64,000 nt of DNA from an uncultured Bacteroidaceae bacterium (lineage in GTDB: Bacteria > Bacteroidota > Bacteroidia > Bacteroidales > SM23-62): assembly GCA_964574985.1 (NCBI GenBank), contig CAZNPH010000001.1:166357-230356 (forward strand), read 5' to 3'. The notes below the pieces were generated by a model, which saw nothing but the letters and a program-made list of their open reading frames with translations, had not been told where the DNA came from and ran no database searches. The position numbers and the translations under genes are program-made. Within the stretch, counting starts at the first letter, position 1, and each line of letters opens with the position of its first letter. Shown here in pieces: positions 5,783-50,994 of the stretch.

Positions 5783-5791
5783 GGGATAGTT

Positions 5792-24074: not shown

Positions 24075-25970
24075 TTATTTTTTGGGAACCTGTACCCCGC
24101 GCTGCCTGGCCATTTCTTCAAGCCTTTTTTGGAATTTGGATTGCTTTTTCGGCTTCTTCTGGTTTGTCTTCATTTTTTTTCGCAGTTCATCCTCATCAAT
24201 GTATTGTTTGAACAGGGCATTTTGACCGAAGGTGATCAGATTGGCAAGAAAATAATAATAGGTCAGCGCTGCTGAAAAATTGTTGAGGATGAACATGAAC
24301 ATAACGGGCATAATATACATCATGCTTTTCATTCCCGGCATCTGGCTGCTGGAAGGCGTGGACTGATTGCTGATCCGCATGCTGATAATGGTGGAAGCAG
24401 TCATCAGTATGGTAAACAAACTGACATGGTCACCATAAAACGGGATGTTGAAAGGCAGATCCAGGATGCTGTCGTAAGTGGACAGATCCTGTGCCCATAA
24501 AAAGCTTTCCTGCCTGAGTTCAATGGAAGTTGGGAAAAACCTGAACATGGCAAAAAGGATGGGAAACTGCAAAAGCATGGGCAGGCATCCTCCGAGCGGA
24601 CTCACACCGGCTTTTTTATACAGGGCCATGGTGGCCTGTTGCCTTTGCATGGCTTTGTCCTTGGGAATCTTCTTGTTGATCTCATCAATCTCGGGCTTCA
24701 ACACCCGCATCTTTGCCTGTGACAAATAAGAACGGTATGTCAGCGGGAACAGCAATACCTTGATCATGATGGTCAGCAAAAGGATGATGATCCCGTAACT
24801 GTCAATAAACCCACTCAGAAAATTAAAAACCGGGATGATCAGGTAACGGTTAATGGCTGTACTGATAAAACCACCCAGGGAAACCAGTTCCTGCAATTCC
24901 ATACCGTGTTTCTTCAGGGTCTGAAAATGATTGGGACCGAAATAAAAATGCAGGGGGGTCTTTGTTTCCGATCCGGCAGAATATGGCACACCCAGCTTTG
25001 TGGCAAACCGCTTGAGGTATTGCTGTGAATCTTCAAGGTCCACCGATTGAACCGTTCCGTTCAAAAAATGCTCTCCTGCTATCAATACGGAAGAGAAAAA
25101 TTGTTGTTTGAAGGCAACCCATTTCAGGCCGGTAGGAATGTCCTCCTCCTGGATCTCCTTGTTGCTCCTGCCCCTGAAATGATCTACCTCATCCTTATGA
25201 TGCTTGTAATATATGGTCGTATAATTGTTCTCATTCTGCCGCCCTTTTTCAAGGCCGGGTACAAAAACCTCCCAGTTCAGATCAATGTAATTGATATTGG
25301 AAGATATGACCTCCTGCATGTTTTTCATCCGGATGCTGCAATCCAGCATGTATTTGCCGGGGTACATGGTATAAACATACTCGAGGAACCTCCCTTCCCC
25401 GGCATTCAGTCTCATCACCAGGCTGCGGGGATCATTTTCCACCCGGATCTTCCGCTCATCCGTACGGGGGGCGAAAAACAGCTCATTGGTTGCAATGCTA
25501 CGGTTCTGGGCAAAGAAATTCATTCCGAATACCGTGGAATCCCCGTCAAAAAGGATCAGGGGCAATGAATCGTGTGTTTTGTATTTTTTCAGTTCGACCG
25601 ACCAGATACGCCCCCCTTTGCTGGCCACCTCCACTTTCATCAGGTCATTCTCCATGGTGATGAATTCCTGATCACCGGTGGCCGATTCGGCAAATACACC
25701 CCAGAGGCTTTTTAACCGATCCCTGTCCACGCTGTCCTTTTTAACACCCGCCTCCTGTTCTTTCTGCACAACCGGTTCCTTCCGGGGCTTTTCCTTCTGC
25801 ACGCCGGTTGCACCGGGCATAGTGTCCGTTTGCTCCTGCCGGACCAGTTCGAGTGAATCAGCCCGGCGTCTTGCTTCCTTCAGTTCTTCTCTTGAAGGTC
25901 TGGTCAGGAGACTATAGCCAATCAGTATGACGGCGATAAGTATGATCCCTATAATCGAATTTCTGTCCAT
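24075..25970 (-). CDS. yidC: Membrane protein insertase YidC
   Basis: 631 aa. N-terminal TM, large periplasmic domain, a conserved C-terminal core (PLGGCLPMLLQFPILFAMF) and a basic tail. yidC-pyrG adjacency. Confidence 0.92.
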   Translation of the reverse strand: MDRNSIIGIILIAVILIGYSLLTRPSREELKEARRRADSLELVRQEQTDTMPGATGVQKEKPRKEPVVQKEQEAGVKKDSVDRDRLKSLWGVFAESATGDQEFITMENDLMKVEVASKGGRIWSVELKKYKTHDSLPLILFDGDSTVFGMNFFAQNRSIATNELFFAPRTDERKIRVENDPRSLVMRLNAGEGRFLEYVYTMYPGKYMLDCSIRMKNMQEVISSNINYIDLNWEVFVPGLEKGRQNENNYTTIYYKHHKDEVDHFRGRSNKEIQEEDIPTGLKWVAFKQQFFSSVLIAGEHFLNGTVQSVDLEDSQQYLKRFATKLGVPYSAGSETKTPLHFYFGPNHFQTLKKHGMELQELVSLGGFISTAINRYLIIPVFNFLSGFIDSYGIIILLLTIMIKVLLFPLTYRSYLSQAKMRVLKPEIDEINKKIPKDKAMQRQQATMALYKKAGVSPLGGCLPMLLQFPILFAMFRFFPTSIELRQESFLWAQDLSTYDSILDLPFNIPFYGDHVSLFTILMTASTIISMRISNQSTPSSSQMPGMKSMMYIMPVMFMFILNNFSAALTYYYFLANLITFGQNALFKQYIDEDELRKKMKTNQKKPKKQSKFQKRLEEMARQRGVQVPKK

Positions 25971-34003: not shown

Positions 34004-34959
34004 CGACCGGTCTCCTTTTCATACTTTTTTCCCTGCCAGGTGTCTTTTTCTTCCAATTTCTTTTCAAACCTTTCAAGCACCTGATCATATCTCAATCCCC
34101 AGTCCGGAGCAATAAGAAAATCGCGGTGGGCTTCTCCGGCAATCCTTTCGACAATGATATCAGGCCTCAGCCGTTCCAGCAATTCCGCCATCAACCCGAG
34201 ATATTCATCCAAGCCGAACAGACTGAATTTTCCCGGATTCTGTGCATATTCAGCAGCCATCTGCGTATTTTTGACAATCTGCAGCTGATGGAACTTGACA
34301 CCTGAAAGGGGTAGTCCGGACAACAATTCTATTTCATGAATCAGATCTTTTCTGCTTTCTCCCGGCAGTCCGACGATCATATGGCCTGCAACATGAATCC
34401 CTTTAGCGGCGGTTTTCCTGATTGCCTCTGCAGATTCCTCCCACGTATGCCCACGGTTGATCAAGGCAAGTGTGTCATTGAAACAGGACTCGATCCCGTA
34501 TTCAAGGACAATATGGTAACGGTCCGAAAGCTTACGGAAATATTCAAGTTTTTCGTCATCCACACAATCCGGCCGGGTCCCGATGACCAGTCCGATCAAC
34601 CCCGGTATTTCAAGAGCTTGTTCATACAAGTTTTTTACATGTTCCAACCGTCCATAAGTATTTGTATACGGCTGAAAATAAGCCAAATACTGATGAGTCT
34701 TCCGGTATCTTTTCTTATAATACTCCATTCCTTCCTGTAATTGCTGCCCGATGGGCTTATGCGGACTGCAATATTTCGGATTGAATGCGTTGTTGTTGCA
34801 GTACGTGCACCCCCCTGTTCCTTTGGTGCCATCCCGGTTGGGGCAAGTAAATCCTGCATCAACGGCCAGTTTCTGGACCCTTCCTCTGAATTTTTTCCTG
34901 AAAAATCCGATATAGGCATTGAATCTTCTTTTTGTTCCCCAGGGATATGTCCTTGTCAT
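34000..34959 (-). CDS. Radical SAM protein, TIGR01212 (YhcC-like) family
   Basis: 319 aa. FTCPNRDGTKGTGGCTYCNN cluster region. ATGA overlaps at both ends with the flanking genes. Confidence 0.82.
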   Translation of the reverse strand: MTRTYPWGTKRRFNAYIGFFRKKFRGRVQKLAVDAGFTCPNRDGTKGTGGCTYCNNNAFNPKYCSPHKPIGQQLQEGMEYYKKRYRKTHQYLAYFQPYTNTYGRLEHVKNLYEQALEIPGLIGLVIGTRPDCVDDEKLEYFRKLSDRYHIVLEYGIESCFNDTLALINRGHTWEESAEAIRKTAAKGIHVAGHMIVGLPGESRKDLIHEIELLSGLPLSGVKFHQLQIVKNTQMAAEYAQNPGKFSLFGLDEYLGLMAELLERLRPDIIVERIAGEAHRDFLIAPDWGLRYDQVLERFEKKLEEKDTWQGKKYEKETGR

Positions 34960-37900
34960 TCCCGTGTTATTTTCTGCAGTTCATCCAGCATTACATACCA
35001 TACATAGCCTTCAATCTCCTGAAAACCCATTGCGGATAAATGGGACATATACTCCCGTACCTGCGAGGCATATATGTTTTCTTTCCGGCGGCCAAACTTA
35101 TAGTCCAGTACCACAACCTTCCGTGACTGGATCATCACCCTGTCGGGACGCCTGATCTTTCCCGCTCCCGTGATCATCTCACGCTCATTGATCACTTTCC
35201 ATTTGTCCGAAAACCAGTATGACCAAGGCTTCCGGGATATGATCCCTTCAATATGGCTACGCATTTTCATGCATTCGTTCCTGCCCATCTTTCCCTGTCT
35301 GAATATTTCCTCCATTGCCCTGTCCAGGTCATCACGGGTCTCTATCATCTCAAATACTTCGTGCATTATCCGGCCGTAACTGACCTTGTCTTTCCCCGCC
35401 GGATCAAAAAAATCATCTCCCCGGAACCTCAGTTTGAGTCTGTCCCCCAGCGGAACACTTCGAAAAGCACTCATTTTGCAGGTTTTTCCCCTCTTTTCTT
35501 CCGTCAGGACTTTCGCGGGCAATCCGAATTCCAGACGGCTCTTGTAGTTTTTCCCCTTCCCCGGAGCCACCGGTCTGTCCTTCGTAAATTCTTTCCTGGC
35601 AACGGACAGAACCAGATCGGCGATATCTGTCATTCCTTTATCCGACGGCTTGTCAGGCATAAACAGATAAAGCTCATCACAGGCTCTGGTCATGGACACG
35701 TACAGCAAATTAAAATGATCGACGAAGATTTTCAGTTTTTCCCTGTAGTATTCACCGGAAAAAAAGCTGTTCTCCAGCCTGCCGCTGTAAAGAACCGGGA
35801 CAAGCGGCAAACCGTCGAACGGCCGGATTTCCGGTTTGCACCACAATATGGTCTGATTGGCATGATGATCAAGTTTCCAGTCACAAAAAGGAAGGATCAC
35901 AACCGGGAATTCCAGACCTTTTGCTTTGTGTATGGTCATGATCCTGATGGCATCCTGCTGTTCTGAAATACTCAGATTCTTTTGCTTCCCTTCTTCTTCC
36001 CACCATTCAAGAAATGACACATTATCTGAAGGTTCTTTAGCTGCATACTCAGTTACCAGATCCTGAAATGCGTTGATAAAAGGCAAATCCCTGGATTTTC
36101 CCGACAGGGAAAAAATGCGTACGATCTCTTCGGTAAGTTCATAAAGAGGAAGATTCTTCAACCATTGACGGGTTTTCACAAATTCATCAGGAAGATATTC
36201 CAGCAAGATACTTTCATCTTCATGATTTCCTGCAGACATGAAAAGCTTCCCGGGATTTCTCCCGGAAGCGGACAGGATTGTCTGGGATTCATGCAACAAA
36301 AATGCTTTATTGATCCGGTCTCCGGGTTGATTAAGAAATTTCATGATACTGATGATCAGTTGTACAGCTGACGAACTGCCCACAAAAAGAGACTCCTGGG
36401 AAATGGTATCATAACTGTATTGTTCAGAGGCCATGGATGAGTCTTTGTAGTCCAGAATGGCATCGGTCATTTTCCTTACTTCTTCTCCCGTTCTGGCCAG
36501 TATGGCTATATCGCCCGGATGGTAGCCTCTTTCCTGCAGTTGTTCAATAACAGAAATGGTATTTCGAACCGCATCTTCCTGCCACTGTTTATTTGACGAT
36601 TCAAGGAACTCGAACCGCACATATCCGCCCGCTTTCTTTTTCTTCTGGTGACCAGGAACCTCCTGTCTTACATCCTGGTATACTTTTTTCAGCCGGCCGT
36701 CCATCCATCTTTGCAAGTCCTGATCCGAACCACCGGAAAGAATCAACTGATCAAGATGTGACTGAAGAATATCTGCCGCTGTGGAAAAGAACCGGTTGTT
36801 GCATTCCACGATTACTTCCCTGCTCCTCCAGTTGAAAACCAAGGGTTTGTATGCAATTCCGAAATGTCGGAAATCGTCGCCGATCATATCGGAAAGTATC
36901 TCCCAGTCCCCGTTCCGCCAGCGGTAAATGCTTTGTTTTATGTCCCCCACCAGCATGCTTTTATAATTCCGGGCAAGACTGTCGGCAATCAACGGCTTAA
37001 AATTGTCATACTGCAGAATGGAAGTATCCTGAAATTCATCGATCATGAAATGATGGAAATATTCACCGGTTTTTTCATAAATGAAAGGCGCTTCGTTTTC
37101 ACCGATGATGTCTTTGAGAAACCGGTTGGCGTCGGAAAGAAGAAAAAAGTTCATTTCTGACGCGTATGCATAAACGCGTTCCGAAACATCCGACAGAATC
37201 CCCAGGATATAAATGTTGCGAACGACCAGACGTGCTGTTTCATATTTTGCAAATTCATCTTCAAATTTTCTTACGGCCTTTGCAAGCAATTCGCCCAAAC
37301 CATTTTTCACCAGGTATGATATCTGTTTTTTCTTCTCACTTCCTGCGGAATACCAGCCCTCTGCATCATCAAGTGCATTACATACCCGGGTGCCCGGGAC
37401 TTTGCCGGTCCTGCCCGCTGACAAAGCTTCCAGATACCCCACAGGACCCGTTTTCCCGTATTTGAAATCCTCCACCTGCAGTCCGTTCCGGTTTACCAGC
37501 TCCATGGCTGCCCGCCCGGTGGCCATGAGATTTTCCTCATAGGATTTAATGATCCGGTATAAATCTTTTTTATAAGCCCGGAGAAATTTCCTGTCTGTAA
37601 ATTTTCTCTTCAATTCAGACCGGTGCATCTGGAACCTCTCATTGAATATTTCACGGGAAAGCTCCCTGATCAGGTATTTCAGGTTCCAGCTTCCGCCCTC
37701 TATGATCCGTTCCCTGGCAAATCCGGCCAACCATTGCAGCAGGAGGGGATCTTCTGAAAGCCCTGAAAACAATTCATCAATGGCATGATCCAGAACTTTG
37801 TGATGATCAAGTTCAACAGTATATCCTGCCTGTATTCCGATATCCCGGGCAAATCCCCGGATTATCTTTTGAAAAAAACGATCAATGGTCATAACATGAA

Positions 37901-38210
37901 ACCTGGAATAATTATGCAGGATCATACCAAGCATATAACCTGCACGCCGGCGGATCTGATCCTGATCGAATACTGTCATTTCCATCAGATATGCAAGGTT
38001 GCTGTTTCCCTGATCTTTTTGGTGATTGAGCAGATAAAGCTCGGAGAGAATCTTCACTTTCATTTCCCAGGCCGCCTTATTGGTAAAAGTTACAGCCAGG
38101 ATATGCCGGTAGCTTTCCGGATCCCTGAATAAAAGCTCAAGGTATTCACGGGCCAGTGTATATGTTTTACCGGAACCTGCAGATGACTTGTAAACAACAA
38201 GATTTGACAT
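34956..38210 (-). CDS. UvrD/REP-type helicase with C-terminal PD-(D/E)XK nuclease, AddA-like
   Basis: 1084 aa. Walker A SAGSGKTYTL, FMIDEFQDTS, and C-terminal RPDRV...VVLDYKFG. Confidence 0.85.
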   Translation of the reverse strand: MSNLVVYKSSAGSGKTYTLAREYLELLFRDPESYRHILAVTFTNKAAWEMKVKILSELYLLNHQKDQGNSNLAYLMEMTVFDQDQIRRRAGYMLGMILHNYSRFHVMTIDRFFQKIIRGFARDIGIQAGYTVELDHHKVLDHAIDELFSGLSEDPLLLQWLAGFARERIIEGGSWNLKYLIRELSREIFNERFQMHRSELKRKFTDRKFLRAYKKDLYRIIKSYEENLMATGRAAMELVNRNGLQVEDFKYGKTGPVGYLEALSAGRTGKVPGTRVCNALDDAEGWYSAGSEKKKQISYLVKNGLGELLAKAVRKFEDEFAKYETARLVVRNIYILGILSDVSERVYAYASEMNFFLLSDANRFLKDIIGENEAPFIYEKTGEYFHHFMIDEFQDTSILQYDNFKPLIADSLARNYKSMLVGDIKQSIYRWRNGDWEILSDMIGDDFRHFGIAYKPLVFNWRSREVIVECNNRFFSTAADILQSHLDQLILSGGSDQDLQRWMDGRLKKVYQDVRQEVPGHQKKKKAGGYVRFEFLESSNKQWQEDAVRNTISVIEQLQERGYHPGDIAILARTGEEVRKMTDAILDYKDSSMASEQYSYDTISQESLFVGSSSAVQLIISIMKFLNQPGDRINKAFLLHESQTILSASGRNPGKLFMSAGNHEDESILLEYLPDEFVKTRQWLKNLPLYELTEEIVRIFSLSGKSRDLPFINAFQDLVTEYAAKEPSDNVSFLEWWEEEGKQKNLSISEQQDAIRIMTIHKAKGLEFPVVILPFCDWKLDHHANQTILWCKPEIRPFDGLPLVPVLYSGRLENSFFSGEYYREKLKIFVDHFNLLYVSMTRACDELYLFMPDKPSDKGMTDIADLVLSVARKEFTKDRPVAPGKGKNYKSRLEFGLPAKVLTEEKRGKTCKMSAFRSVPLGDRLKLRFRGDDFFDPAGKDKVSYGRIMHEVFEMIETRDDLDRAMEEIFRQGKMGRNECMKMRSHIEGIISRKPWSYWFSDKWKVINEREMITGAGKIRRPDRVMIQSRKVVVLDYKFGRRKENIYASQVREYMSHLSAMGFQEIEGYVWYVMLDELQKITRE

Positions 38211-40315: not shown

Positions 40316-41044
40316 TCAGTCTCCCCCGTCGTGCAGGCCACATTCCCTCTTTTCCTGTTCTTCCCACCACCATCTGCCCGAACGAAACTCTTCACCGGAT
40401 TTTACCGGTCGCGTACATGGCCGGCATCCGATGCTTTTATATCCTTTTTCGTGCAATCTGTTGAAAGGCACATGATGTGACCGTATATAATCCCAGACTT
40501 CCGATTCGCACCAGTCAATCAGCGGATTGACCTTGATCAGGCCGTTCTGATCATCCCATTCCACCCGTTTGTTGTAAAACCGGGTCAGACTCTGATCCTT
40601 CCTGAGTCCGCATACCCAGACATCCATTCCCCGCAGGGCCCGTTTGAGGGGTTCCTTCTTACGGATATGGCAGCATAATTTCCGGTTTTCAACGCTCTCG
40701 TAAAACAAATTGATCCCCTTGCTGTTCACCATTTTCTCAACCGCCTTGTAATCGGGGAAATAAACCCGTATCTGAATGCCGTAATGCCTGGCGGTCTCCT
40801 CAATCAACCGGTAGGTTTCCGGGAAAAGCCTTCCCGTATCAAGTGTAATAACAGGGATCTCTTTCCCGGCAGCAACAATCATGTCGGTGATCACCTGGTC
40901 TTCGGCACCCATACTGCTGGACTGCAAAACTTTACCGGGGTATTTCCCGGAGAAGTAATTCAATAATTCCAGCGGTGAATACCCTTTCAGCTCCGCATTC
41001 AGTGAATCGATCACTGCACTTTTGTCATTCTGATGAGATGTCAT
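40316..41044 (-). CDS. cysH: Assimilatory adenylyl-sulfate (APS)/PAPS reductase, Fe-S type
   Basis: CysH family (..ECGLH near the C-terminus). The CC...CxxC cluster motif (RKLCCHIRK; GCRPCT) indicates the APS-utilising type. The start is ATG 41044 or 41068. Confidence 0.86.
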   Translation of the reverse strand: MTSHQNDKSAVIDSLNAELKGYSPLELLNYFSGKYPGKVLQSSSMGAEDQVITDMIVAAGKEIPVITLDTGRLFPETYRLIEETARHYGIQIRVYFPDYKAVEKMVNSKGINLFYESVENRKLCCHIRKKEPLKRALRGMDVWVCGLRKDQSLTRFYNKRVEWDDQNGLIKVNPLIDWCESEVWDYIRSHHVPFNRLHEKGYKSIGCRPCTRPVKSGEEFRSGRWWWEEQEKRECGLHDGGD

Positions 41045-41089
41045 GTTCTCCTCCTCCCTGTAAAACATAAAATTGATGGAATTTTAAAT

Positions 41090-41818
41090 TCATGTTTCTT
41101 TTCCCCGAAACAGTTTTTCGGCTTTCCTGAAATTTTCATACCTGCCCAGATCGTACCAGTAATCGCTGTCATGACGGTATGCCCGGATGGGGTATTGTGC
41201 AGCAAGACGCAAATAAAGACCGGTCAGTGAAAAAGCGCCTTCTTCGGTGATCAGACTGAATATCCGGGGATCAACGACCTGAATGCAACTGTTTCCCAAT
41301 GGGATCAGTTTCTCTTTATCATTTCTTATGATTCTTTCTTCTCCGCTGACCAGGTTTCTCCATCCGGCGAGGTATCCTGACCGGGTGAAAAGAAAAGGCC
41401 GGGTCGTGGATCTCTTTTTTACCGCCAGGGTAACCAGTGAATTACCGGATAAATGGGCACGATATAGCGAAATCAGGTCCAGACCGGTCAGAACATCCAC
41501 ATTGTGCAATAAAAAAGGTTCATTTCCAAAGAACCATGACGCTTTCTTCAAGCCTCCCCCGGTATTCAGCAAACGCTCTGTTTCATCGGACGGCTCTACC
41601 CGTATATCAAAGTGGTTCCGTTCATCCAGAAAATCCCTGATCTGTTCCGCAAAATGAAAAACATTCACGATTATTTCATCAAACCCTGCAGTCCGGAGAT
41701 TCAAAATAACCCTTTCCAATAGTTTTTTCCCGTTGAAATCGACCAGCGCTTTCGGGGTATGGTCGGTCAATGGTGCCAGTCTGGTCCCTTTTCCGGCTGC
41801 AAGAATCATTGCCTTCAT
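41090..41818 (-). CDS. Sugar-1-phosphate nucleotidyltransferase (MurU-like)
   Basis: 242 aa. MKAMILAAGKGTRLAPLTDHTPKALV is the nucleotidyltransferase G-loop. Adjacent to the AmgK-like kinase. Confidence 0.78.
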   Translation of the reverse strand: MKAMILAAGKGTRLAPLTDHTPKALVDFNGKKLLERVILNLRTAGFDEIIVNVFHFAEQIRDFLDERNHFDIRVEPSDETERLLNTGGGLKKASWFFGNEPFLLHNVDVLTGLDLISLYRAHLSGNSLVTLAVKKRSTTRPFLFTRSGYLAGWRNLVSGEERIIRNDKEKLIPLGNSCIQVVDPRIFSLITEEGAFSLTGLYLRLAAQYPIRAYRHDSDYWYDLGRYENFRKAEKLFRGKET

Positions 41819-41913
41819 CCGAATATATTTGCGTTACCCATTTAATATTTAGCACGTTATAATGTCAGCTCAAAAGATTTGTGTTTTTGTTGCCGGCCTC
41901 CCGCAGGATCATA
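41819..41913 (-). repeat. Intergenic repeat family, copy E (reverse orientation; right half of the core plus tail)
   Basis: The reverse complement reads CCTGCGGGAGGCCGGCAACAAAAACAC...GAGCTGACATTATAACGTGCTAAATATTAAATGGGTAACGCAAATATATTCGG followed by ATG 41818. GGCAAC lies 76 nt before the start codon. Confidence 0.85.
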
Positions 41914-43347
41914 TTATTTTTCAAGCTCGCGGTGGAATATCACAGATTCCAGCCGGTAAACAGATTTTATGTACTGTGCCAGTTTTTCTGCACAATAAAC
42001 CGACCGGTGTTGTCCTCCTGTACAACCAAAAAACACGGATAAATGTTCAAACTGCCTTGCCTGGTATTTTTTCACCGACTGATCGATGATCCCAAAAACA
42101 TGGTTTAAAAATTCACTGACTTCAGGTTTCGATGACATATACCGGATCACTTTTTCGTCCATACCGGTAAAGGATTTATATTCTTCGAGACGGCCCGGAT
42201 TGGGCAGCAATCTGCAGTCAAACACGAATCCGCCGCCATGACCGCTGTAATCTCCGGGCATACCGTGTTTGTATGAAAAACTGGTGATTCTGATCTTCAT
42301 TGGCTGACCATACCCCTTCCCGTACTCCATCAAATCCTGCCGTGCAGACAGTTTTTCAAAACAACGGACCATTTCCGGAACATCTGAAGGAATATGCTTA
42401 TTCTCCAGCAACCAACGGATATTGTTCAGGGCATACGGAATGCTCTCCATAAAAAGCGGTTTGTTCTCGACCATACCGCGCAACCCGTATGTACCCATAA
42501 CCTGCATGATCCTCAGCCAGACCAGGGGATAATAATAACGCATGAAATCCGGTCTGCCGGTCCCGGTTCTTTTCTCCAATTCCTTCAGATAATGTTCCTG
42601 TAATTCCTGTCTCAGTGCAGGCGGCAAATCTGTTTTTGACTCATACAGAAGAGAAGCCACATCATATTGCAGGGGTCCTTTCCTCCCCCCCTGATAATCT
42701 ATAAAATAAACATCATCATGGATCAGCATGATGTTTCTGCTCTGGAAATCCCGGTACATGAAAAATTCTTTTTCTGCCCTGTCAATGAAGCGTGCGAAAC
42801 GCACGAAATCATCTTCCAGACTGTCCTCGTCAAATGATATACCGTGGATCCTGAGTCCAAAGTATTTGAAATAATTCAGATCCCACATGACCGAACGGCT
42901 GTCGAAACTTTCCCTGTGCGTACAAAGAGAATAATCAAGACCTGCATGTCCCTCGGTCTGAAAACAGATCAGCATGGACAAAACCCTTTTGTATATTTCT
43001 GTCAAATTCTCTGAAAAACCTGAAATTTTTTTTTCGTCCGCCACTTTTGCATGCAAAGTTACATCGCCCAGATCCTGAATAAGGTAAACGGATTTTTCCG
43101 GTTTCCGGGCGTAGATCTCCGGCACGGGTAAACCTTTCTTTCTGAAATGATCGGAAAAAGCAAGAAAAGCCCGGGTTTCTTTCCGGTCTTCATGGAATAC
43201 ACCCAGTGCACTCCGTTTCTTTCCCGAAATTCTGCAGTATTTTCGGGCTGATCCTGAACGCGGATCCAGTGACTGCATGTTCCCTGCACTTTCACCCGAC
43301 CATTCCCGGAATAACTCTGCAAGGATATCCTGTAATTCTTTCTGCAT
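41914..43347 (-). CDS. Fusion protein: aminoglycoside-phosphotransferase-fold kinase (AmgK-like) plus RapZ C-terminal-like domain
   Basis: Likely start at ATG 43347 (MQKELQDIL...). Kinase motifs DFQSRNIML and FIDYQGG. The C-terminal ~150 aa aligns to the RapZ CTD (SFSYKHGMP...FVFDCRLLPNP...TGMD...FGCTGGQHRSVYCAEKLAQY). Confidence 0.75.
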   Translation of the reverse strand: MQKELQDILAELFREWSGESAGNMQSLDPRSGSARKYCRISGKKRSALGVFHEDRKETRAFLAFSDHFRKKGLPVPEIYARKPEKSVYLIQDLGDVTLHAKVADEKKISGFSENLTEIYKRVLSMLICFQTEGHAGLDYSLCTHRESFDSRSVMWDLNYFKYFGLRIHGISFDEDSLEDDFVRFARFIDRAEKEFFMYRDFQSRNIMLIHDDVYFIDYQGGRKGPLQYDVASLLYESKTDLPPALRQELQEHYLKELEKRTGTGRPDFMRYYYPLVWLRIMQVMGTYGLRGMVENKPLFMESIPYALNNIRWLLENKHIPSDVPEMVRCFEKLSARQDLMEYGKGYGQPMKIRITSFSYKHGMPGDYSGHGGGFVFDCRLLPNPGRLEEYKSFTGMDEKVIRYMSSKPEVSEFLNHVFGIIDQSVKKYQARQFEHLSVFFGCTGGQHRSVYCAEKLAQYIKSVYRLESVIFHRELEK

Positions 43348-43436
43348 GAAAAAAGTTTCGGTCAGTTCAAATTTAATTATTTCCCCTGCCCCTGCAAAAA
43401 TCAGACACCCCGGCAACAGCATTGTATTAATTTGGT

Positions 43437-43444: not shown

Positions 43445-43465
43445 TATGTTTTCAATCATTTCGTC

Positions 43466-43903
43466 ATGCCAAGCTTCGTGATCACGGAAAAATGCGACGG
43501 CTGCAAATCCCTTGACAAAACAGCCTGCCAGTACGTATGCCCGAACGACCTGATGGTACTCGACATGGCAAAGAACAAAGCCATGAACAGGGCCCCCGAA
43601 ATGTGCTGGGAATGTTACAATTGCGTTAAGATATGCCCCACACAGGCCATCGAAGTCAGGGGTTATGCCGATTTTATGCCGTTGGGTGCGGTTGTCCGGC
43701 CCATGAAAAGTTCCGATGCCATATTGTGGTCGGTAAAATTCAGGGACGGCCAAATCAAAAGATTCAAATTTCCCACCCGCACCATCCCGGAAGGAAACAT
43801 TTCACCGGACGCCGGATATGAAACAGGATCAGATGACATGAAAAGTCCGCTCCTCAGAACAGAACCCGGTTCTCTCGGCATCTCAGAATTAAGCAAAATA
43901 TAA
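43466..43903 (+). CDS. aprB: Adenylylsulfate reductase, beta subunit (dissimilatory type)
   Basis: Start at ATG 43466. MPSFVITEKCDGCKSLDKTACQYVCPNDLMVLD...MCWECYNCVKICPTQAIEVRGY is the canonical AprB N-terminus with two ferredoxin-type Cys clusters. The ORF-track extension from 43277 is spurious. Confidence 0.9.
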   Translation: MPSFVITEKCDGCKSLDKTACQYVCPNDLMVLDMAKNKAMNRAPEMCWECYNCVKICPTQAIEVRGYADFMPLGAVVRPMKSSDAILWSVKFRDGQIKRFKFPTRTIPEGNISPDAGYETGSDDMKSPLLRTEPGSLGISELSKI

Positions 43904-43908
43904 AATTT

Positions 43909-45798
43909 ATGAACATCGGGGATCGATACGAAACCATCACCATGGACACCGACATTCTGATCCTGGGAGGAGGGATGGCTGCATGTGGCGCAGCATGGGA
44001 AGCCGCCCACTGGGCAAAAAAAAACAAACTGAAAATCACCCTGGTGGATAAAGCATCCATGGAACGTTCGGGAGCTGTAGCCATGGGACTGTCCGCCATC
44101 AATCTTTATATGGGCCTCGGCAAAGATGAAAATACAATCGAGGATTATGTCCGTTATGTCAGAAATGATCTGATGGGAGTGGCACGTGACGATCTGGTGG
44201 CCAATATTGCCCGTCATGTGGACTCTTCGGTCCATCTATTTGAAAAATGGGGACTTCCCATATGGAAAAATGATCAGGGTGGCTATGTCCGTGAAGGCCG
44301 GTGGCAAATCATGATCAACGGCGAATCCTACAAGCCGGTCGTCTCAGAAGCCGCAAAAAAAGCACTGGCAGAGCTCGGAGAAGACGGAAAATATCTGGAA
44401 AGAATATTCATTACCGCTCCTCTGGTGAAAGAGGGGAAGATTGCCGGAGCAACCGGTTTCAGTGTAAGGGAAAACAAGTTTTATGTCTTCAGGGCCAAAA
44501 GCGTGATCGTCGCTATGGGCGGTGCTGTTCATATTTTCAAACCCAGGTCTGTGGGGGAAGGACTGGGCAGATCATGGTATCCACCGTTCAATTCAGGAGC
44601 CAGTGCCTATTTCACCATCCGTGCAGGAGCAGAAATGACTTGTCAGGAAGTTCGTTTTGTTCCGGTACGTTTCAAGGATGCATATGGCCCGGTCGGGGCG
44701 TGGTTCCTGCTTTTTCAAGCCAAAACCACCAATGCCCGGGGAGAGGACTATATGCAAAAAAGAGCCGGCGAACTGAAAAAATGGGCGCCTTACGGAACAG
44801 CCAAACCCACTCCTGCCAACCTGAGGAACTACCTGATGATGCAGGAAATCGAAGAGGGAAACCATCCCATCTACATGCGAACCGACGAAGCCATAAAAAG
44901 AATCGCGGCCGGACAACAGGATGAAAAATCCGCAGCCATCCTCCTGAAAAAACTGGAATCGGAAGCCTGGGAAGATTTCCTTGACATGACCATCAGCCAG
45001 GCATTGTTGTGGGCATCGACCAATATCCGTCCTGATAACCAACCCTCCGAGATCGCTGCTTGTGAGCCGTATTTTATCAGTTCTCATTCGGGAGCATCCG
45101 GTGCATGGGTGAGCGGGCCCGTAGACTTTGCTCCTGATCCCTATAAATGGGGGTATCCCAATATGACTACGGTAAACGGACTCTTCGCGGCGGGTGATGC
45201 ATCCGGCGCATCCAGCCATAAATTTTCATCAGGTTCTTTTACCGAGGGAAGGATTGCCGGCAAATCCGCCGCTGCATATGCACTGGATCACCCTGAGTCC
45301 GTTCAAACGGATCAAACGGAAATTACAGGATTGAAGGAACAGGTATTCAAACCCCTTTCCCTATACCATGAGCACTGTGATTATGCAAATGACAAGAATG
45401 TAAATCCGTATTTCATCAAACCGCAGATGTTCATGTTCAGACTGCAAAAAATCATGGATGAATATGCGGGAGGAGTATCCGGTGGTTTCAGAACATCCGG
45501 GCCTCTTTTGAAAAAAGGACTGGAATATCTGGATTTCCTGGAAGAGGATGCCGGAAAGCTGGCAGCAGAAAACACCCACGAATTGATGCGCTGCTGGGAA
45601 AATATCCACCGGCTATGGCAGGCAAGATCCCATATCCTGAGCATGCTGTACCGCGAAGAAACCAGGTGGCCGGGATATTATTTCCGAACCGATTTCCCTC
45701 AATTATCGGAGGATTGGAAAGTGTTTGTCAATTGCAGACGGGAACCCGGAACCGGTCAATGGAGCAATTTCAAGCGGGACATCATTGAAATGGTCTGA
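43909..45798 (+). CDS. aprA: Adenylylsulfate reductase, alpha subunit (FAD flavoprotein)
   Basis: 629 aa. DILILGGGMAACGAAWEA dinucleotide fold and fumarate-reductase-family architecture. Sits immediately after aprB. Confidence 0.92.
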   Translation: MNIGDRYETITMDTDILILGGGMAACGAAWEAAHWAKKNKLKITLVDKASMERSGAVAMGLSAINLYMGLGKDENTIEDYVRYVRNDLMGVARDDLVANIARHVDSSVHLFEKWGLPIWKNDQGGYVREGRWQIMINGESYKPVVSEAAKKALAELGEDGKYLERIFITAPLVKEGKIAGATGFSVRENKFYVFRAKSVIVAMGGAVHIFKPRSVGEGLGRSWYPPFNSGASAYFTIRAGAEMTCQEVRFVPVRFKDAYGPVGAWFLLFQAKTTNARGEDYMQKRAGELKKWAPYGTAKPTPANLRNYLMMQEIEEGNHPIYMRTDEAIKRIAAGQQDEKSAAILLKKLESEAWEDFLDMTISQALLWASTNIRPDNQPSEIAACEPYFISSHSGASGAWVSGPVDFAPDPYKWGYPNMTTVNGLFAAGDASGASSHKFSSGSFTEGRIAGKSAAAYALDHPESVQTDQTEITGLKEQVFKPLSLYHEHCDYANDKNVNPYFIKPQMFMFRLQKIMDEYAGGVSGGFRTSGPLLKKGLEYLDFLEEDAGKLAAENTHELMRCWENIHRLWQARSHILSMLYREETRWPGYYFRTDFPQLSEDWKVFVNCRREPGTGQWSNFKRDIIEMV

Positions 45799-45808
45799 GA
45801 AAAAGCAA

Positions 45809-47068
45809 GTGAATAATAATGCGAATTCATCAAGAATAGTTGTAGCCGGGGGAGGAATCAGCGGAATCACCACCGCCATCGAGATCGCTGAAACAGGTTA
45901 TGAAGTCCTGCTGATCGAAAAGAATCCCGGTCTGGGCGGACGAGTGGCCAGAATGAACAAATATTTCCCGAAGCTTTGTCCCCCGGCATGTGGCCTGGAG
46001 ATCAATTTCCGGAGAATCCGCAACAATTCCAGGATATATCTGCTTACCTCCACGGAAATAATTGCGATTAAAGGGAAAGAAGGGAACTTCAGGGTCCGGC
46101 TCCGTACCGGACCGGACCGGATCAATGAGAATTGCACGGCCTGCGGGTTATGCGCCGAAGTCTGTCCCGTGGAAACAAAGGACGAATTCAATTACGGGAT
46201 GTCTGTACACAAAGCCGTCTACCTGTCTCATGAAATGACCTATCCTTACCGGTATACCATTGATGCATCCGTCTGCCCGGGAGAAACATGCGGACGCTGT
46301 GAGGCGGTTTGCCCGTACGGTGCCGTCGACCTGAAAGCCCGGGCCATGGAAAGGGAAATCCATGTTGCGGCTGTCGTATTTGCCACAGGATGGGAACCCT
46401 TTGATCCAAAAGCCATTCCTGACTATCAGTTTGGAAAACATCCCGACGTAATTACCAATGTCATGATGGAAAGACTTATTGCACCGGAAGGTCCTACCGG
46501 CGGCAAGGTACTTTGTCCGTCCGACAGGGGAAAACCCGGTTTCATTGCTTTTGTCCAGTGTACGGGTTCCAGGGATGAACAATATCTCCCCTATTGTTCG
46601 GGAGTATGTTGTTCCTCCTCCCTGAAAGAAGCCATGATTTTCCTGGAACAAAATCCTGAGGGAAAAGCAGTCATATATTATATTGATCTCAGGGTAACCG
46701 GCCGGGGGGAAGATTTCCTGAAAAAGGCGGTCATTCACCCCAACATTGAATTGAAAAAAGGCAGGGTCGGCAGGATTCTAACCAATGAAAAAACGGGAAA
46801 ACCTGTGATCGAGACAGAAAATATCCTTTCCGGCAAAAAGATCAGAAAACAGGCGGACCTGGTTGTGCTGGCCACCGGAATGGTCCCGGCTGAAATCAAA
46901 CTGGAAGGCATACAATCCGGCCCCAAAGGATTTCAGACTTCTTCAATCGAAGGAATTTATATCGCCGGATGTGCCGGGAAACCCATGGATGTATCATCCT
47001 CACTGAAAGATGCAACAGGCACTGCCCTGAAAGCCATACAGTCACTGAGTACAATGAAACGTTCATGA
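45809..47068 (+). CDS. qmoA: Quinone-modifying oxidoreductase subunit QmoA (HdrA-like flavoprotein)
   Basis: RIVVAGGGISGITTAIEIAETGYEVLLIEK FAD fold and CxxCxxCxxxCP motifs. I favour GTG 45809 as the start; the alternative ATG 45725 would overlap aprA by 74 nt. Confidence 0.83.
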   Translation: MNNNANSSRIVVAGGGISGITTAIEIAETGYEVLLIEKNPGLGGRVARMNKYFPKLCPPACGLEINFRRIRNNSRIYLLTSTEIIAIKGKEGNFRVRLRTGPDRINENCTACGLCAEVCPVETKDEFNYGMSVHKAVYLSHEMTYPYRYTIDASVCPGETCGRCEAVCPYGAVDLKARAMEREIHVAAVVFATGWEPFDPKAIPDYQFGKHPDVITNVMMERLIAPEGPTGGKVLCPSDRGKPGFIAFVQCTGSRDEQYLPYCSGVCCSSSLKEAMIFLEQNPEGKAVIYYIDLRVTGRGEDFLKKAVIHPNIELKKGRVGRILTNEKTGKPVIETENILSGKKIRKQADLVVLATGMVPAEIKLEGIQSGPKGFQTSSIEGIYIAGCAGKPMDVSSSLKDATGTALKAIQSLSTMKRS

Positions 47069-49209
47069 TGTCTCTTTCCAAAAAGACAGCGGTTTATATC
47101 TGTACGGGTTGTCGTATCGGGGATGCCCTGGATACCAGTAAAATTCTCAATGAACTGCCGGAGGAATTTTCCCTTTCTGTATGCAAATCGCATAACCATT
47201 TATGCAGCCTGGATGGAGTACGTATGATTGAAAAAGATATTCAGGATGACGGAATCCAGTCTTTGGTTCTGGCGGCCTGTTCGGCCAGATACAAAACCGG
47301 GATTTTCAGCTTTGACCCTGAAATACCGGTTGAACGGGTCAACCTGAGGGAACAAGTTGCATGGACTCAGAACCCGGACAACGAAGATACCCGGATGATG
47401 GCCATGGATTATCTCCGTATGGGTATCAACCGTGCGGATACCACCTCCGTGCCCGGGGGATATGTTCCAGGGGAACTGAACGCAGATATTCTGGTTATCG
47501 GCGCAGGAATTTCCGGATTAACCGCTGCCATTGAAATATCCAAAACAGGATACAGGGTCATACTCATTGAAAAAGAAAGATCTCCGGGTGGTTTCGCGGC
47601 CAGACTCCACAGGCAGCTTCCTGCAGACCCTCCGTGGAATAAGCCGGTTTTGCCGGAGATCCATTCCCTCATAGAAAAAGTGGTTAACAGCGATAGAATT
47701 GAATTGCATTGCTCCTCAGAGGTCAGAAGCATAGGGGGTGAACCCGGAAATTTCATTATCGAATACCTGGATACAGGAAATACATGTACCATACGGGCAG
47801 GGGCGATCATTCAGGCCACAGGATGGAAACCATATGATCCTCTAAAAATAAAGGAATACAATTACGGCAGCAGTCCGGATATCATCACCAACATTCAATT
47901 CGAGGAAATGGCCCGGGAAGGAGCCATTAAACGGCCTTCCGACGGCATGAAGATCAGAAGCATCCTTTTTGTTCAATGCGCCGGTTCACGGAATAAGGAC
48001 CACCTGCCCTATTGTTCAACGTACTGTTGTAATGTTACCCTCAAACAGGCACTGTACGTAAGGGAAACCAATGCCGATGCACAAATATTCATTGTATACA
48101 AGGACATCCGGACACCCGGTGCAGGAGAATTCTTTTACCATGAAGTTCAGAAAGAAGACAATATTTTTATGACCAAAGGGGAAGTCAAAAGGATTTACGC
48201 GGGGGATGGAGTTCTGCACACAGAAACAATGGATGCCCTGATGGGTAAAGACATATGCCTGAAAACCGATCTGGTGGTGCTGGCCATGGGTATGGTCCCC
48301 GAAGCTTCAGGAAGCCTTCATCTGAATTACAGGCAGGGACCGGAATTGCCGGATCTGAAATACGGGTTTCCTGACTCACATTACATTTGTTTCCCCTATG
48401 AGACCAGACGTACGGGGATTTATTCAACGGGTACGGTAAGGGCTCCGATGGATATTGTCTCCTCAAAGGAGGATGCTGCCGGTGCCGCCCTGAAAGCAAT
48501 CCAGTGCTTTGAATCCACAAAGCGGGGAGAATCAGTTCATCCCAGATCCGGAGACAGGAGTTTTCCCGAACTGTACATGCCCAGGTGCACCGACTGCAAG
48601 CGTTGTACCGAAGAATGCCCTTTCGGTGTGTATGACGAAACCGAAAATGGCACTCCCATTCTGAATCCTTCCCGGTGCCGCCGCTGCGGCATTTGTATGG
48701 GATCATGCCCTGAGCGGATCATTAATTTTGCCGATTTTTCGATCCAATCCGTATCGGCCATGATCAAATCAATTGAGATCCCACCCGAAACGGAAGAAAA
48801 ATTCCGGATCCTGGTTTTTGCATGCGAAAACGACGCCATACCGGCATTCGACATGGCCGGACATAAAAAACTCCGGTACAGTCCGTTTATCAGGATCATC
48901 CCGGTCCGCTGCATTGGAAACGTCAATGCGGTTTGGATATCCGATGCTTTTTCCCAGGGATTCGACGGAGTACTGCAGATCGGATGTAAACCCGGGGAAG
49001 ATTATCAGTGTCATTTCATTCTGGGCAGTGAACTGACCCAAATACGGAACAAAAATATACAGGATACCCTGAACACGATGATGCTTGAACCTGAACGTGT
49101 ACAGACCGAATTCATTGAGATCACCGAGTATTACCGCATTCCGGAAATCATAAACGGATTTGCCGAACAGATCAGAATAATCGGGGCGAATCCTTTCAAA
49201 GGCATGTGA
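47065..49209 (+). CDS. qmoB: QmoB (HdrA-like flavoprotein with ferredoxin and MvhD-like C-terminal domains)
   Basis: Start at ATG 47065 (ATGA overlap with the qmoA stop). DILVIGAGISGLTAAIEISKTGYRVILIEK, two 4Fe-4S motifs (CKRCTEECP, CGICMGSCP), and an MvhD-like tail (ILVFACENDA...IPVRCIGNV). Confidence 0.87.
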   Translation: MMSLSKKTAVYICTGCRIGDALDTSKILNELPEEFSLSVCKSHNHLCSLDGVRMIEKDIQDDGIQSLVLAACSARYKTGIFSFDPEIPVERVNLREQVAWTQNPDNEDTRMMAMDYLRMGINRADTTSVPGGYVPGELNADILVIGAGISGLTAAIEISKTGYRVILIEKERSPGGFAARLHRQLPADPPWNKPVLPEIHSLIEKVVNSDRIELHCSSEVRSIGGEPGNFIIEYLDTGNTCTIRAGAIIQATGWKPYDPLKIKEYNYGSSPDIITNIQFEEMAREGAIKRPSDGMKIRSILFVQCAGSRNKDHLPYCSTYCCNVTLKQALYVRETNADAQIFIVYKDIRTPGAGEFFYHEVQKEDNIFMTKGEVKRIYAGDGVLHTETMDALMGKDICLKTDLVVLAMGMVPEASGSLHLNYRQGPELPDLKYGFPDSHYICFPYETRRTGIYSTGTVRAPMDIVSSKEDAAGAALKAIQCFESTKRGESVHPRSGDRSFPELYMPRCTDCKRCTEECPFGVYDETENGTPILNPSRCRRCGICMGSCPERIINFADFSIQSVSAMIKSIEIPPETEEKFRILVFACENDAIPAFDMAGHKKLRYSPFIRIIPVRCIGNVNAVWISDAFSQGFDGVLQIGCKPGEDYQCHFILGSELTQIRNKNIQDTLNTMMLEPERVQTEFIEITEYYRIPEIINGFAEQIRIIGANPFKGM

Positions 49210-49213
49210 TACA

Positions 49214-50305
49214 ATGCAAACGGCCATCCCAGATACCGATTTCATCAAACAGCTGAAACAACGTTCCGGTTCCGGTTTAAGTACCTGTATGCAATGTGGT
49301 GCATGTACCGCTGTTTGCGAATTGTCGCCGGCAGACAATCCCTTTCCGAGAAAAGAAATGATCTGGGCATCATGGGGACTGAAAAACAAACTGATGGGCG
49401 ACCCGGACGTCTGGCTGTGCCATCATTGCGGAGATTGTACGGCCACCTGTCCCAGGGAGGTAAAACCCGGGGAAGTATTATCGGCAGTCAGGCATATTAC
49501 CTATGCCTCTTATTCCCGGCCGGGGTTTCTGGCCAGAATGCTGTCAAATCCCCTATACCTTCCATTGGTGGTTGGCGTACCCGCACTGATCATCCTAACG
49601 ATCATTGCCATGGCCGGGACCTTTGGTATTCCTGAAGGAAAGATCAACTATTCCGCTTTTTTCCCCCATGGCTGGTTGAATATTTCCTTTACGGCCATCA
49701 CCCTGCTGTCTTTTTCCGGTTTGGCATGGAGCATCAGGGATTTCCGCAGAGATATCCTCCGGCATCTTCCCGGCCCAACTTCACAGAAGGGGCAGATCAG
49801 AAACTTCATGGTCACCATCCGGGATATCGTACTGCACACCCGGTTCAAAAAATGCAGATACGGCAAATACCAGTACTATGCTCATTTCATGGTATTTGCA
49901 GGTTTTATCCTTTTACTGCTTGTCACCTTATTCGCCATCCTCAGCACCTTGTTCTTCGAATACCCGCTGCCCTTTCTGCATCCCGCGAAAATTGCCGGAA
50001 ACGCAGCTGCACTTCTTTTACTTTCCGGAGGAGGTATTCTGATTGCAAAACGCATCACCGGTGGGGGGAAAATCAATAATGACTACACCGATTGGTTCTT
50101 TCTGATCATTTTGTACCTGCTGGTCATTACGGGCGTACTGGTGGAAATGGCCCGGTTCCTGGATTGGGCACCGGCCTATCACATCTATTTCATCCATCTG
50201 GAATTGGTATGGCTGTTGATCATCTACGCCCCCTATACAAAATTTGCCCACGTGGTTTACCGTACAATGGCCATGGCCGAAGCCCGGAGATGTGGAAGGA
50301 TTTGA
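49214..50305 (+). CDS. qmoC: QmoC (HdrC-like Fe-S domain fused to a membrane cytochrome-b-like domain)
   Basis: 363 aa. CMQCGACTAVCE and CHHCGDCTATCP clusters, followed by about 6 hydrophobic helices. Confidence 0.85.
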   Translation: MQTAIPDTDFIKQLKQRSGSGLSTCMQCGACTAVCELSPADNPFPRKEMIWASWGLKNKLMGDPDVWLCHHCGDCTATCPREVKPGEVLSAVRHITYASYSRPGFLARMLSNPLYLPLVVGVPALIILTIIAMAGTFGIPEGKINYSAFFPHGWLNISFTAITLLSFSGLAWSIRDFRRDILRHLPGPTSQKGQIRNFMVTIRDIVLHTRFKKCRYGKYQYYAHFMVFAGFILLLLVTLFAILSTLFFEYPLPFLHPAKIAGNAAALLLLSGGGILIAKRITGGGKINNDYTDWFFLIILYLLVITGVLVEMARFLDWAPAYHIYFIHLELVWLLIIYAPYTKFAHVVYRTMAMAEARRCGRI

Positions 50306-50799: not shown

Positions 50800-50888
50800 T
50801 GGTGCCCAGGACAAGAATCGAACTTGCACTCCCGATTGCGGGAACATGGCCCTCAACCATGCGCGTCTACCTGTTCCGCCACCTGGGC
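50800..50888 (-). tRNA. tRNA-Leu (anticodon GAG), CCA encoded
   Basis: The reverse complement folds as a type-II cloverleaf. Acceptor GCCCAGG/CCTGGGC, anticodon stem CATGG/CCATG with loop TTGAGGG, long variable arm (CCCG/CGGG), T-loop TTCGATT, 3' ACCA. Confidence 0.9.
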
Positions 50889-50910
50889 GTCAGGGGGAAT
50901 ATACACTCAG

Positions 50911-50994
50911 TGCCCAGAACAGGACTCGAACCTGCACGATGTTGCCATCACTGGTCCCTGAAACCAGCGCGTCTACCAATTCCGCCATCTGGGC
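50911..50994 (-). tRNA. tRNA-Leu (anticodon CAG), CCA not encoded
   Basis: Acceptor GCCCAGA/TCTGGGC, anticodon stem CTGGT/ACCAG with loop TTCAGGG, variable arm GATG/CATC, T-loop TTCGAGT. Confidence 0.9.

Follow-up and report, generated by a model that had tools for sequence, protein, structure and literature searches.

An AmgK-lineage kinase joined to a RapZ-type C-terminal domain and encoded beside a MurU-like gene in an uncultured Bacteroidaceae bacterium

What does a RapZ-type C-terminal domain do when it is attached to a kinase that is unrelated to the one found in RapZ? The question is raised by a gene from an uncultured Bacteroidaceae bacterium (Bacteroidales; SM23-62), located in a 64,000-nucleotide (nt) stretch of DNA, hereafter the window (GenBank assembly GCA_964574985.1, contig CAZNPH010000001.1, positions 166,357 to 230,356 of the forward strand). 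The gene lies at 41914..43347 on the minus strand and codes for a two-domain protein of 477 amino acids (aa), an AmgK-like kinase followed by a RapZ C-terminal domain (CTD), as established from the list of open reading frames (ORFs), homologue alignment, and domain calls. A MurU-like gene follows it directly. We consider it moderately likely that the two genes form a two-step salvage unit, leading from a sugar through a sugar-1-phosphate to a uridine diphosphate (UDP)-sugar, in which the C-terminal domain is a phospho-(amino)sugar-binding and dimerising module and not an RNase adaptor.

The C-terminal domain occupies aa 343-477 (41917..42321, minus strand) and was identified with Pfam, phmmer, BLASTP, and AlphaFold2 (AF2). 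Pfam PF22740 matches aa 350-475 (41923-42300) over model positions 1-120 of 121 (E=1.3e-35). Residues 352-477 match E. coli RapZ structures with phmmer (E ~1e-17) and with a family profile (E=1.5e-27), and a BLASTP comparison of the domain with E. coli RapZ gives 38% identity (E=3e-26). An AF2 model of aa 343-477 (predicted local distance difference test [pLDDT] 92) superimposes on the RapZ CTD in 5O5S with a template modelling (TM) score of 0.92, a root-mean-square deviation of 1.7 Å, and 35% identity. The initial annotation had aligned this region with the RapZ C-terminal domain, and both the profile and the model comparison place the match far beyond chance. It had also proposed that a kinase of the aminoglycoside phosphotransferase (APH) fold replaces the P-loop half of RapZ. 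Consistent with this, there is no Pfam match to the RapZ P-loop domain (PF03668) in the 477-aa protein, and the NCBIfam RapZ model is matched only at positions 157-277 of 278, scoring 107.6 bits where the cut-off is 244. The fusion is real, its homology to the RapZ CTD is solid, and RapZ is the only other setting in which this domain is known. There is one RapZ_C copy in the window.

The bare fusion is no discovery, as the architecture is already present in precomputed Pfam matches and in proteins named "RapZ C-terminal domain-containing protein". Other fused proteins are named "RNase adapter RapZ" in records of metagenome-assembled genomes (MAGs) (P0091, P0118, P0308, P0325, P0337, P0380, P0392, and P0407). 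Because the fused proteins have no RapZ N-domain and the RapZ model falls well short of its cut-off, this name is unjustified and likely reflects annotation carry-over.

The kinase half comprises aa 1-342 (42322..43347, minus strand) and has an APH/eukaryotic-like kinase fold of the COG3178/AmgK type according to Pfam, NCBIfam, 3CSV, and AF2. An all-helical linker (~aa 316-349) lies partly inside it. Pfam APH matches the kinase core at E=5.5e-10, and the single PDB kinase match in the sequence search is 3CSV (aa 32-307, E=1e-13), to which the family profile extends over aa 23-315 (E=5e-21). The AF2 model of the whole protein (pLDDT 89, predicted TM 0.71) also has 3CSV as its best PDB match in Foldseek, with a TM of 0.77 on the target at ~18% identity, followed by methylthioribose, corramycin, choline, and aminoglycoside kinases; RapZ chains fit the C-terminal part. 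On the AmgK model NF045698, a 268-aa fragment of 3CSV reaches 228 bits, and the nearest solved kinase is therefore itself a member of the AmgK family. The 477-aa protein matches only three NCBIfam models, RapZ and two for AmgK (NF045698 and NF045759). The AmgK models score 50.0 and 44.5 bits, missing their respective equivalog cut-offs of 500 and 550.

The motifs RDFxxxN, IDxQ, and YDxxSLL are common to the window protein and 3CSV. The catalytic loop, a Brenner-type DxxxxN (D200-F-Q-S-R-N205; 42733..42750, minus strand), aligns with HRDFHAQN of 3CSV, and the metal-binding Asp motif (I216-D217-Y-Q-G-G221; 42685..42702, minus strand) aligns with VIDFQDA; both assignments draw on a translation check, conservation, and the 3CSV alignment. 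Conservation was scored in an alignment of 190 family sequences, in which 110 positions are ≥97% conserved. D200 and N205 in the first motif and D217, Y218, Q219, G220, and G221 in the second are all among positions with ≥97% conservation. The initial annotation had described an APH fold with AmgK-like motifs, and the DFQSRN and IDYQGG motifs, Pfam APH, the AmgK models, and 3CSV all agree with that description. Together these comparisons of sequence and fold support placing the kinase in the AmgK (COG3178, APH-fold) lineage.

The downstream partner gene (41090..41818, minus strand) codes for a 242-aa MurU-like sugar-1-phosphate nucleotidyltransferase, recognised by Pfam NTP_transferase, NCBIfam, and PDB matches. 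Its best NCBIfam model is MurU (NF045761) with 130.8 bits, compared to 76.8 for the runner-up and a cut-off of 250 that is missed. The best PDB matches are MurU from P. putida (4Y7T, E=2.1e-26) and P. aeruginosa (8HHD, E=1.1e-25), both full length. Synteny was evaluated in the 80 best loci from a scan of one genome per species. A MurU-like gene is found directly downstream and on the same strand in 55 of the 80, spanning at least six phyla, with a median gap of 27 nt. When 662 neighbouring ORFs were clustered, the MurU-like gene was the sole conserved neighbour, and AnmK, MupP, and transporters were not found as conserved neighbours among these ORFs. The adjacent gene had already been called MurU-like in the initial annotation, a call that holds for its best NCBIfam and PDB matches; the synteny strengthens the functional link between the two genes.

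Among the 150 best representatives of the 50% clusters, seven (P0153, P0214, P0218, P0232, P0253, P0263, and P0196) are triple fusions with the domain order APH - RapZ_C - NTP_transferase and lengths of 714-816 aa. Their clusters contain several same-length members from independent NCBI, JGI, ENA, and Logan assemblies, and they are therefore not assembly artefacts. The last domain is orthologous to the MurU-like protein of the window, with 38-47% identity. The shared synteny and these natural triple fusions strongly indicate that the transferase works in the same pathway as the kinase-CTD protein. One triple-fusion gene (locus L082, 4001-6145) is positioned between pgk and the contig end, with exbB/exbD beyond pgk.

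In such a pathway, the AmgK-lineage kinase would phosphorylate an amino sugar at C1 and the MurU-like transferase would turn the sugar-1-phosphate into a UDP-sugar. The salvage route of Pseudomonas proceeds in this order, with the kinase AmgK followed by the uridylyltransferase MurU, and requires a separate N-acetylmuramic acid (MurNAc) 6-phosphate phosphatase, MupP (PMC5371407). The product here would most probably be UDP-MurNAc, made from recycled or scavenged MurNAc. We infer this specificity, as neither gene reaches the NCBIfam AmgK or MurU equivalog cut-offs.

A kinase/transferase pair acting on something other than MurNAc, such as another N-acetylhexosamine, a sugar of surface glycans, or, with lower probability, a non-sugar like choline, is an unlikely alternative on the following evidence. 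The scores far under the equivalog cut-offs and the ~18% identity of the kinase to 3CSV leave space for it, the generic name given by JGI is "aminoglycoside/choline kinase family", and the transferase also matches LicC, mannose-1-phosphate, and glucose-1-phosphate transferases in the PDB at weaker E-values. However, no curated families other than AmgK and MurU match the two partners over their full length, these two are also the top matches, and the gene pair mirrors amgK-murU, homologues of which are reported from Bacteroides and are functional in Tannerella (PMC8054146, PMC13046382). The choline kinase/LicC variant was rejected, as the LicC match covers just the N-terminal 67 residues of the transferase.

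The C-terminal domain was compared with E. coli RapZ residue by residue using published definitions (PMC5737377, PMC9841335, PMC7073468). In RapZ, a sulphate/malonate pocket is formed by H190, T248, G249, H252, and R253 (PMC5737377, PMC9841335). C247 is essential, with C247S inactive, and H190A abolishes GlmZ processing (PMC9841335). The RapZ CTD dimerises via strand 179-182, including residues F181 and D182 (PMC5737377). The anion-binding strand-loop-helix of RapZ (C247-S254) corresponds to C442-T-G-G-Q-H-R-S449 (42001..42024, minus strand; RapZ alignments and conservation), in which C247, T248, G249, H252, R253, and S254 are all kept. This loop holds four of the five pocket residues and the essential Cys, and G441, C442, T443, G444, G445, H447, R448, and S449 are invariant in 190/190 sequences. 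Thus, five of six RapZ residues (the pocket and C247) are conserved and invariant. The exception is H190, in whose place P382-N-P-G385-R386 (42190..42204, minus strand; RapZ alignments, conservation, and translation check) has an invariant Gly and then Arg. The dimer residues F181/D182 are kept as invariant F376/D377.

Other residues have been gained relative to RapZ. Invariant R386 (at RapZ W191), Y428, and R431 (at RapZ N236) are new, as is a Gly-rich loop, D366-Y-S-G-H-G-G-G373 (42229..42252, minus strand), which appears as an alignment gap corresponding to a 5-residue insertion compared to E. coli RapZ. Within it, D366, G369, and G371-373 are invariant in the 190 sequences (D-x-x-G-x-G-G-G), and AF2 confidence is lower at the loop. 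The insertion falls in the loop holding RapZ I175, and the RapZ authors list I175 and N236 among residues near the pocket (PMC5737377, PMC9841335). Invariant or near-invariant positions across the domain are S356, F357, S358, P364, D366, G369, G371-G373, F376, D377, R379, N383, P384, and G385, and further along the sequence G395, D397, Y428, R431, G441-G445, H447-V450, and H472. We take this pattern of conservation to mark the anion pocket as the business end of the domain, which has been reshaped, possibly to hold a ligand bearing at least two negative groups.

The residues that have been lost bear on whether the protein is a RapZ-like RNA adaptor, whose kinase half would act as a sensor while a small RNA is brought to a ribonuclease. 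The basic residues of the RapZ RNA path are K170, R184, K194, R196, R211, R238, and K251, together with a basic tail (PMC9841335, PMC7073468). Equivalents of K170, R184, and R196 are retained (K360, R379, and K391), which along with the clear CTD homology and the several MAG records named RapZ is compatible with an adaptor. However, H190 is replaced by the invariant Gly, K194 by Glu, R238 by an invariant Phe, and K251 by Gln, and the C-terminal tails are short, with no conserved basic tail in the family. The median family CTD has an isoelectric point of 7.9 and a net charge of ~+1, compared to +3 to +5 for E. coli RapZ. The missing RapZ N-domain and the low score on the RapZ model also count against an adaptor, the triple fusions to a metabolic enzyme sit uneasily with one, and Rfam found no GlmY/GlmZ match in the window, where the only Rfam matches are two tandem tRNA genes (50803-50994, minus strand). 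The adaptor reading was rejected on residue mapping and charge, and we regard it as extremely improbable; RNA presentation by the C-terminal domain is itself unlikely. The initial annotation had suggested a sugar-phosphate- or RNA-binding module. The sugar-phosphate half of that suggestion is favoured and the RNA half disfavoured, with half of the RNA-contact residues and the basic tail gone and the charge of the domain low.

The isolated RapZ CTD binds glucosamine 6-phosphate (GlcN6P) with a dissociation constant of 10 nM (PMC7073468), and an amino-sugar-phosphate ligand is therefore the natural expectation for the C-terminal domain described here. YvcJ binds UDP-N-acetylglucosamine (UDP-GlcNAc), and the RapZ family is tied to amino-sugar pools, according to work cited in PMC9841335. 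In the fusion, too, the domain is associated with the metabolism of amino-sugar nucleotides. In the proposed salvage unit, the domain would dimerise the enzyme, bind a phospho-sugar or nucleotide sugar, and either tune the kinase or couple the kinase and transferase in response to a pool of amino-sugar phosphate or nucleotide sugar. The domain identities, conservation, synteny, triple fusions, and wide distribution are demonstrated; MurNAc as the substrate, the ligand of the C-terminal domain, and regulation of the kinase by binding are the parts of this proposal that we infer.

The domain could instead serve essentially as a structural element for dimerisation or scaffolding that binds no ligand, which we find decidedly improbable. 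The conserved F376/D377 are what a dimer would predict, the triple fusions place the domain in the middle, with the kinase on one side and the transferase on the other, and some lineages dispense with it. A scaffold nevertheless fails to explain the invariant anion pocket (C, T, G, G, H, R, and S), and it leaves unaccounted for the family-specific invariant Arg, Tyr, and Gly-rich loop that persist across phyla at ~50% identity.

Another alternative assigns catalysis to the domain, as a Cys-dependent phospho-sugar phosphatase or phosphotransferase acting, for example, on MurNAc-6-phosphate (the MupP step), such that one protein would carry out two consecutive steps (6-phosphate off, 1-phosphate on). 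The C-x5-R-S sequence of the C442-S449 loop resembles the phosphate loop of protein tyrosine phosphatase (PTP)/ArsC cysteine phosphatases at the motif level only. The invariance of this loop is shared by D366, D377, D397, H472, and the added R431, although conservation of F376/D377 may reflect dimerisation. In RapZ, the C247S variant is inactive, and its authors suggest a catalytic thiol and describe pocket density for a chemically transformed GlcN6P product (PMC9841335). MupP is a separate, required enzyme in Pseudomonas (PMC5371407), fusions often unite consecutive steps, and the kinase partner of the domain has a P-loop fold in RapZ but an unrelated APH fold here. On the other side, phosphatase activity of RapZ-family domains is absent from the RapZ papers examined, and Foldseek returned no phosphatase-like fold, with the best matches beyond RapZ entries at E>0.1 (SRP54 and phosphofructokinase). 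A PTP/ArsC-like fold was set aside on that Foldseek result, and the catalytic alternative is retained as an unlikely one. It is similarly doubtful that the RapZ-type domain is a relic of, or still is, an active Cys enzyme on amino-sugar phosphates, which here might carry out the MurNAc-6-phosphate phosphatase step or shuttle phosphate, making the kinase-CTD(-MurU) protein a machine with two or three activities. If true, the enterobacterial role of RapZ as an RNA adaptor would have arisen late, through re-use of a metabolic module first partnered with kinases.

The fusion is widespread in public sequence data. A word-indexed search returned at least 8000 clusters (90% identity), the top 120 matches of which are all 450-505 aa long and contain both domains. 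HMMER over 1.84 billion 50%-identity representatives yielded 777 clusters at E≤1e-30, and at least 597 species contain relatives according to the scan of one genome per species. Represented among the 80 best loci are Bacteroidota (Bacteroidales, Prolixibacteraceae, and Saprospiraceae), Ignavibacteriota, Calditrichota, Acidobacteriota, and Elusimicrobiota, together with a Methylomirabilis MAG and a Baltobacteraceae MAG; Chitinophagales and Limnocylindrales names occur among the homologues of a separate search. The window protein is only 47-49% identical to every group, with no close sequenced relative and a best match of 50% among GTDB species representatives. Within-phylum identity is 76% in Acidobacteriota, 69% in Calditrichota, 63% in Elusimicrobiota, and 58% in Bacteroidota, compared to 49-56% between phyla. 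Pairwise identities of the kinase half and the C-terminal domain are correlated (r=0.79). Because the halves co-vary and identity is higher within than between phyla, these comparisons point to one old fusion that has been retained and mostly inherited vertically.

Several loci of Prolixibacteraceae and relatives have the fused kinase without an adjacent MurU-like gene (L013, L018, L019, L031, L036, L043, L048, L050, and L061). These have an ElyC/DUF218-like envelope-biogenesis gene upstream on the opposite strand, and in most there is a YebC/PmpR regulator gene downstream.

A number of observations weigh against the proposed salvage unit. Scores on the AmgK models are far below the curated equivalog thresholds, and the neighbour reaches 131 of the 250 bits set for MurU equivalogs; MurNAc is therefore a putative substrate. 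There is no adjacent MurU-like gene in 25 of the 80 loci, four of which end within 1 kb. The pocket differs from that of RapZ (Gly for H190, Gln for K251, the added R386/R431/Y428, and the Gly-rich loop), and its ligand need not be GlcN6P. The invariant Cys in the C-x5-R-S loop and the remarks on a catalytic thiol in RapZ leave room for catalysis over sensing. A literature search found no published experiment on any fusion member. Finally, a few Bacteroidales lineages have kinase-only versions of 340-358 aa from which the domain has been lost.

The kinase-only versions are nested among fused relatives, their next-best matches being fused proteins at 50-56% identity, and the C-terminal domain can therefore be lost. 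In the one such clade whose gene context was read, the kinase-only gene is a neighbour of ksgA and has no transferase nearby; at three loci (L083-L085), the kinase-only gene (5001-6053, 350 aa) overlaps the end of ksgA (RrnaAD) by 11 nt. The amgK-murU genes of Pseudomonas are also near ksgA.

The initial annotation placed the ORF at 41914-43347, and it is present on the minus strand in the ORF list, with its stop codon at 41914-41916. Three alternative starts are available to the ORF ending at 41914 (TTG at 43455, 513 aa; ATG at 43422, 502 aa; and ATG at 43347, 477 aa). The deposited NCBI call (P0001, 502 aa) begins 25 codons upstream of ATG 43347. In the alignment, 23 homologues from several phyla have N-termini within a few residues of ATG 43347, and the extra N-terminal residues of the 502-aa call (MLLPGCLIFAGAGEIIKFELTETFF) have no counterpart in homologues. 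The start at ATG 43347 was accepted because homologue N-termini align there and because an element, TAAATTTG, is found 20 nt upstream of it (43368..43375, minus strand; read from the sequence). This element fits TAnnTTTG, the Bacteroidota -7 promoter consensus, and is a putative promoter of the kinase-RapZ_C gene. Promoter and terminator scans around this gene and the MurU-like gene were at background level. The 95-bp spacer between the two genes (41819..41913, minus strand), which was read directly and included in the terminator scan, has no terminator-like site above that background, and the genes are probably co-transcribed.

Elsewhere, the window contains pyrG-yidC, sulfatases, DUF349, and a divergent aprBA-qmoABC-like cluster, a gene content indicative of an FCB-group bacterium; no other peptidoglycan-related genes were found in its 64 kb. 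An assimilatory-type adenylylsulfate (APS)/phosphoadenylylsulfate (PAPS) reductase, CysH (NF002537, 277 bits; 40316-41068, minus strand), follows the MurU-like gene after 21 bp and could share its transcript, an adjacency seen in no other locus compared. A dissimilatory-type adenylylsulfate reductase cluster (43448-50305, plus strand) diverges from the kinase gene, which is thus flanked by APS reductases of both types. The cluster codes for AprB (APS-reductase_C, E=1.6e-30 in Pfam; 43448-43903), an AprA-like flavin adenine dinucleotide (FAD) protein (43909-45798), and three Qmo/heterodisulfide-reductase-like proteins (45725-47068, 46969-49209, and 49214-50305), all on the plus strand. A dissimilatory apr/qmo-like cluster is unexpected company in an otherwise Bacteroidota-like genome.

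Three other regions of the window were noted. On the minus strand at 31130-38210, a radical S-adenosylmethionine (SAM) gene (319 aa) lies between genes for a 957-aa PD-(D/E)XK nuclease and a 1084-aa helicase-like protein (N-terminal SAGSGKT) and overlaps each by 4 nt, an unusual position for a radical-SAM gene if the outer two are an AddAB-like pair. At 19770-22152 on the plus strand, three genes for FKBP-type peptidyl-prolyl isomerases (183, 289, and 322 aa) follow one another with overlapping ends. At E≤1e-6, Pfam matches none of the ORFs at 11344-12621 (plus strand, 425 aa), 22157-22861 (minus strand, 234 aa), and 23159-24121 (minus strand, 320 aa).

The fusion is of interest because the role of the RapZ C-terminal domain is unsettled, given its nanomolar GlcN6P binding, an essential Cys that is unexplained, and a transformed ligand (PMC7073468, PMC9841335). 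A RapZ domain in a plain metabolic enzyme of a proposed two-step pathway offers a simple in vitro system for which RNA and RNase are unneeded. The fusion also lends support to the published proposal that parts from sugar metabolism were combined to make RapZ, and it is relevant to peptidoglycan recycling and fosfomycin tolerance outside Proteobacteria.

Among known systems, the AmgK/MurU pair of Tannerella forsythia, a MurNAc salvage pair from Bacteroidota, is predicted to be the most likely characterised relative. Its AmgK is reportedly the one characterised AmgK from Bacteroidota, in work by Hottmann et al. (2021, Microb Physiol 31:123), which is cited in PMC13046382 and PMC11957156. No Tannerella-named proteins were among the homologues listed by cluster look-ups and homologue searches. 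No paper linking an AmgK/APH kinase to a RapZ C-terminal domain was found in a literature search that did not reach the Tannerella AmgK sequence.

The 477-aa protein is a full member of neither curated family, failing the AmgK cut-offs and lacking the RapZ N-domain, His190, and RNA-binding features. With RapZ, the RNase adaptor and GlcN6P sensor of E. coli (PDB 5O5O, 5O5S, and 8B0I; homologue YvcJ), it shares a C-terminal domain that is homologous from end to end (38% identity, TM 0.92) and keeps the pocket residues T248, G249, H252, and R253, the essential C247, and the dimer-strand residues F181 and D182. Unlike RapZ, it has an unrelated kinase fold in place of the P-loop N-domain, Gly and Gln at H190 and K251, a Gly-rich loop, and R386, Y428, and R431, and it has lost RNA-contact basic residues and the tail. 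The fusion gene is also part of a putative metabolic operon, whereas the operon context of RapZ is rpoN or yvcJ-glmR. Like AmgK (N-acetylmuramate/N-acetylglucosamine 1-kinase, EC 2.7.1.221) of Pseudomonas putida/aeruginosa, Legionella, and Caulobacter, it has an APH fold, a MurU-type gene immediately downstream, and the RDFxxxN, IDxQ, and YDxxSLL motifs by way of AmgK-family 3CSV. It differs in its scores (50 and 44.5 bits against 500 and 550) and in an extra RapZ-type domain of 135 residues; proteobacterial AmgK is ~340 aa long, and the Legionella enzyme is ~38 kDa (PMC11957156). The neighbour resembles MurU (MurNAc-alpha-1-phosphate uridylyltransferase; 4Y7T and 8HHD; NF045761) as a minimal sugar-1-phosphate nucleotidyltransferase of 230-240 aa with a full-length match and a position downstream of the kinase, but it scores 130.8 bits against 250, and its relatives are sometimes fused as a third domain to kinase-RapZ_C.

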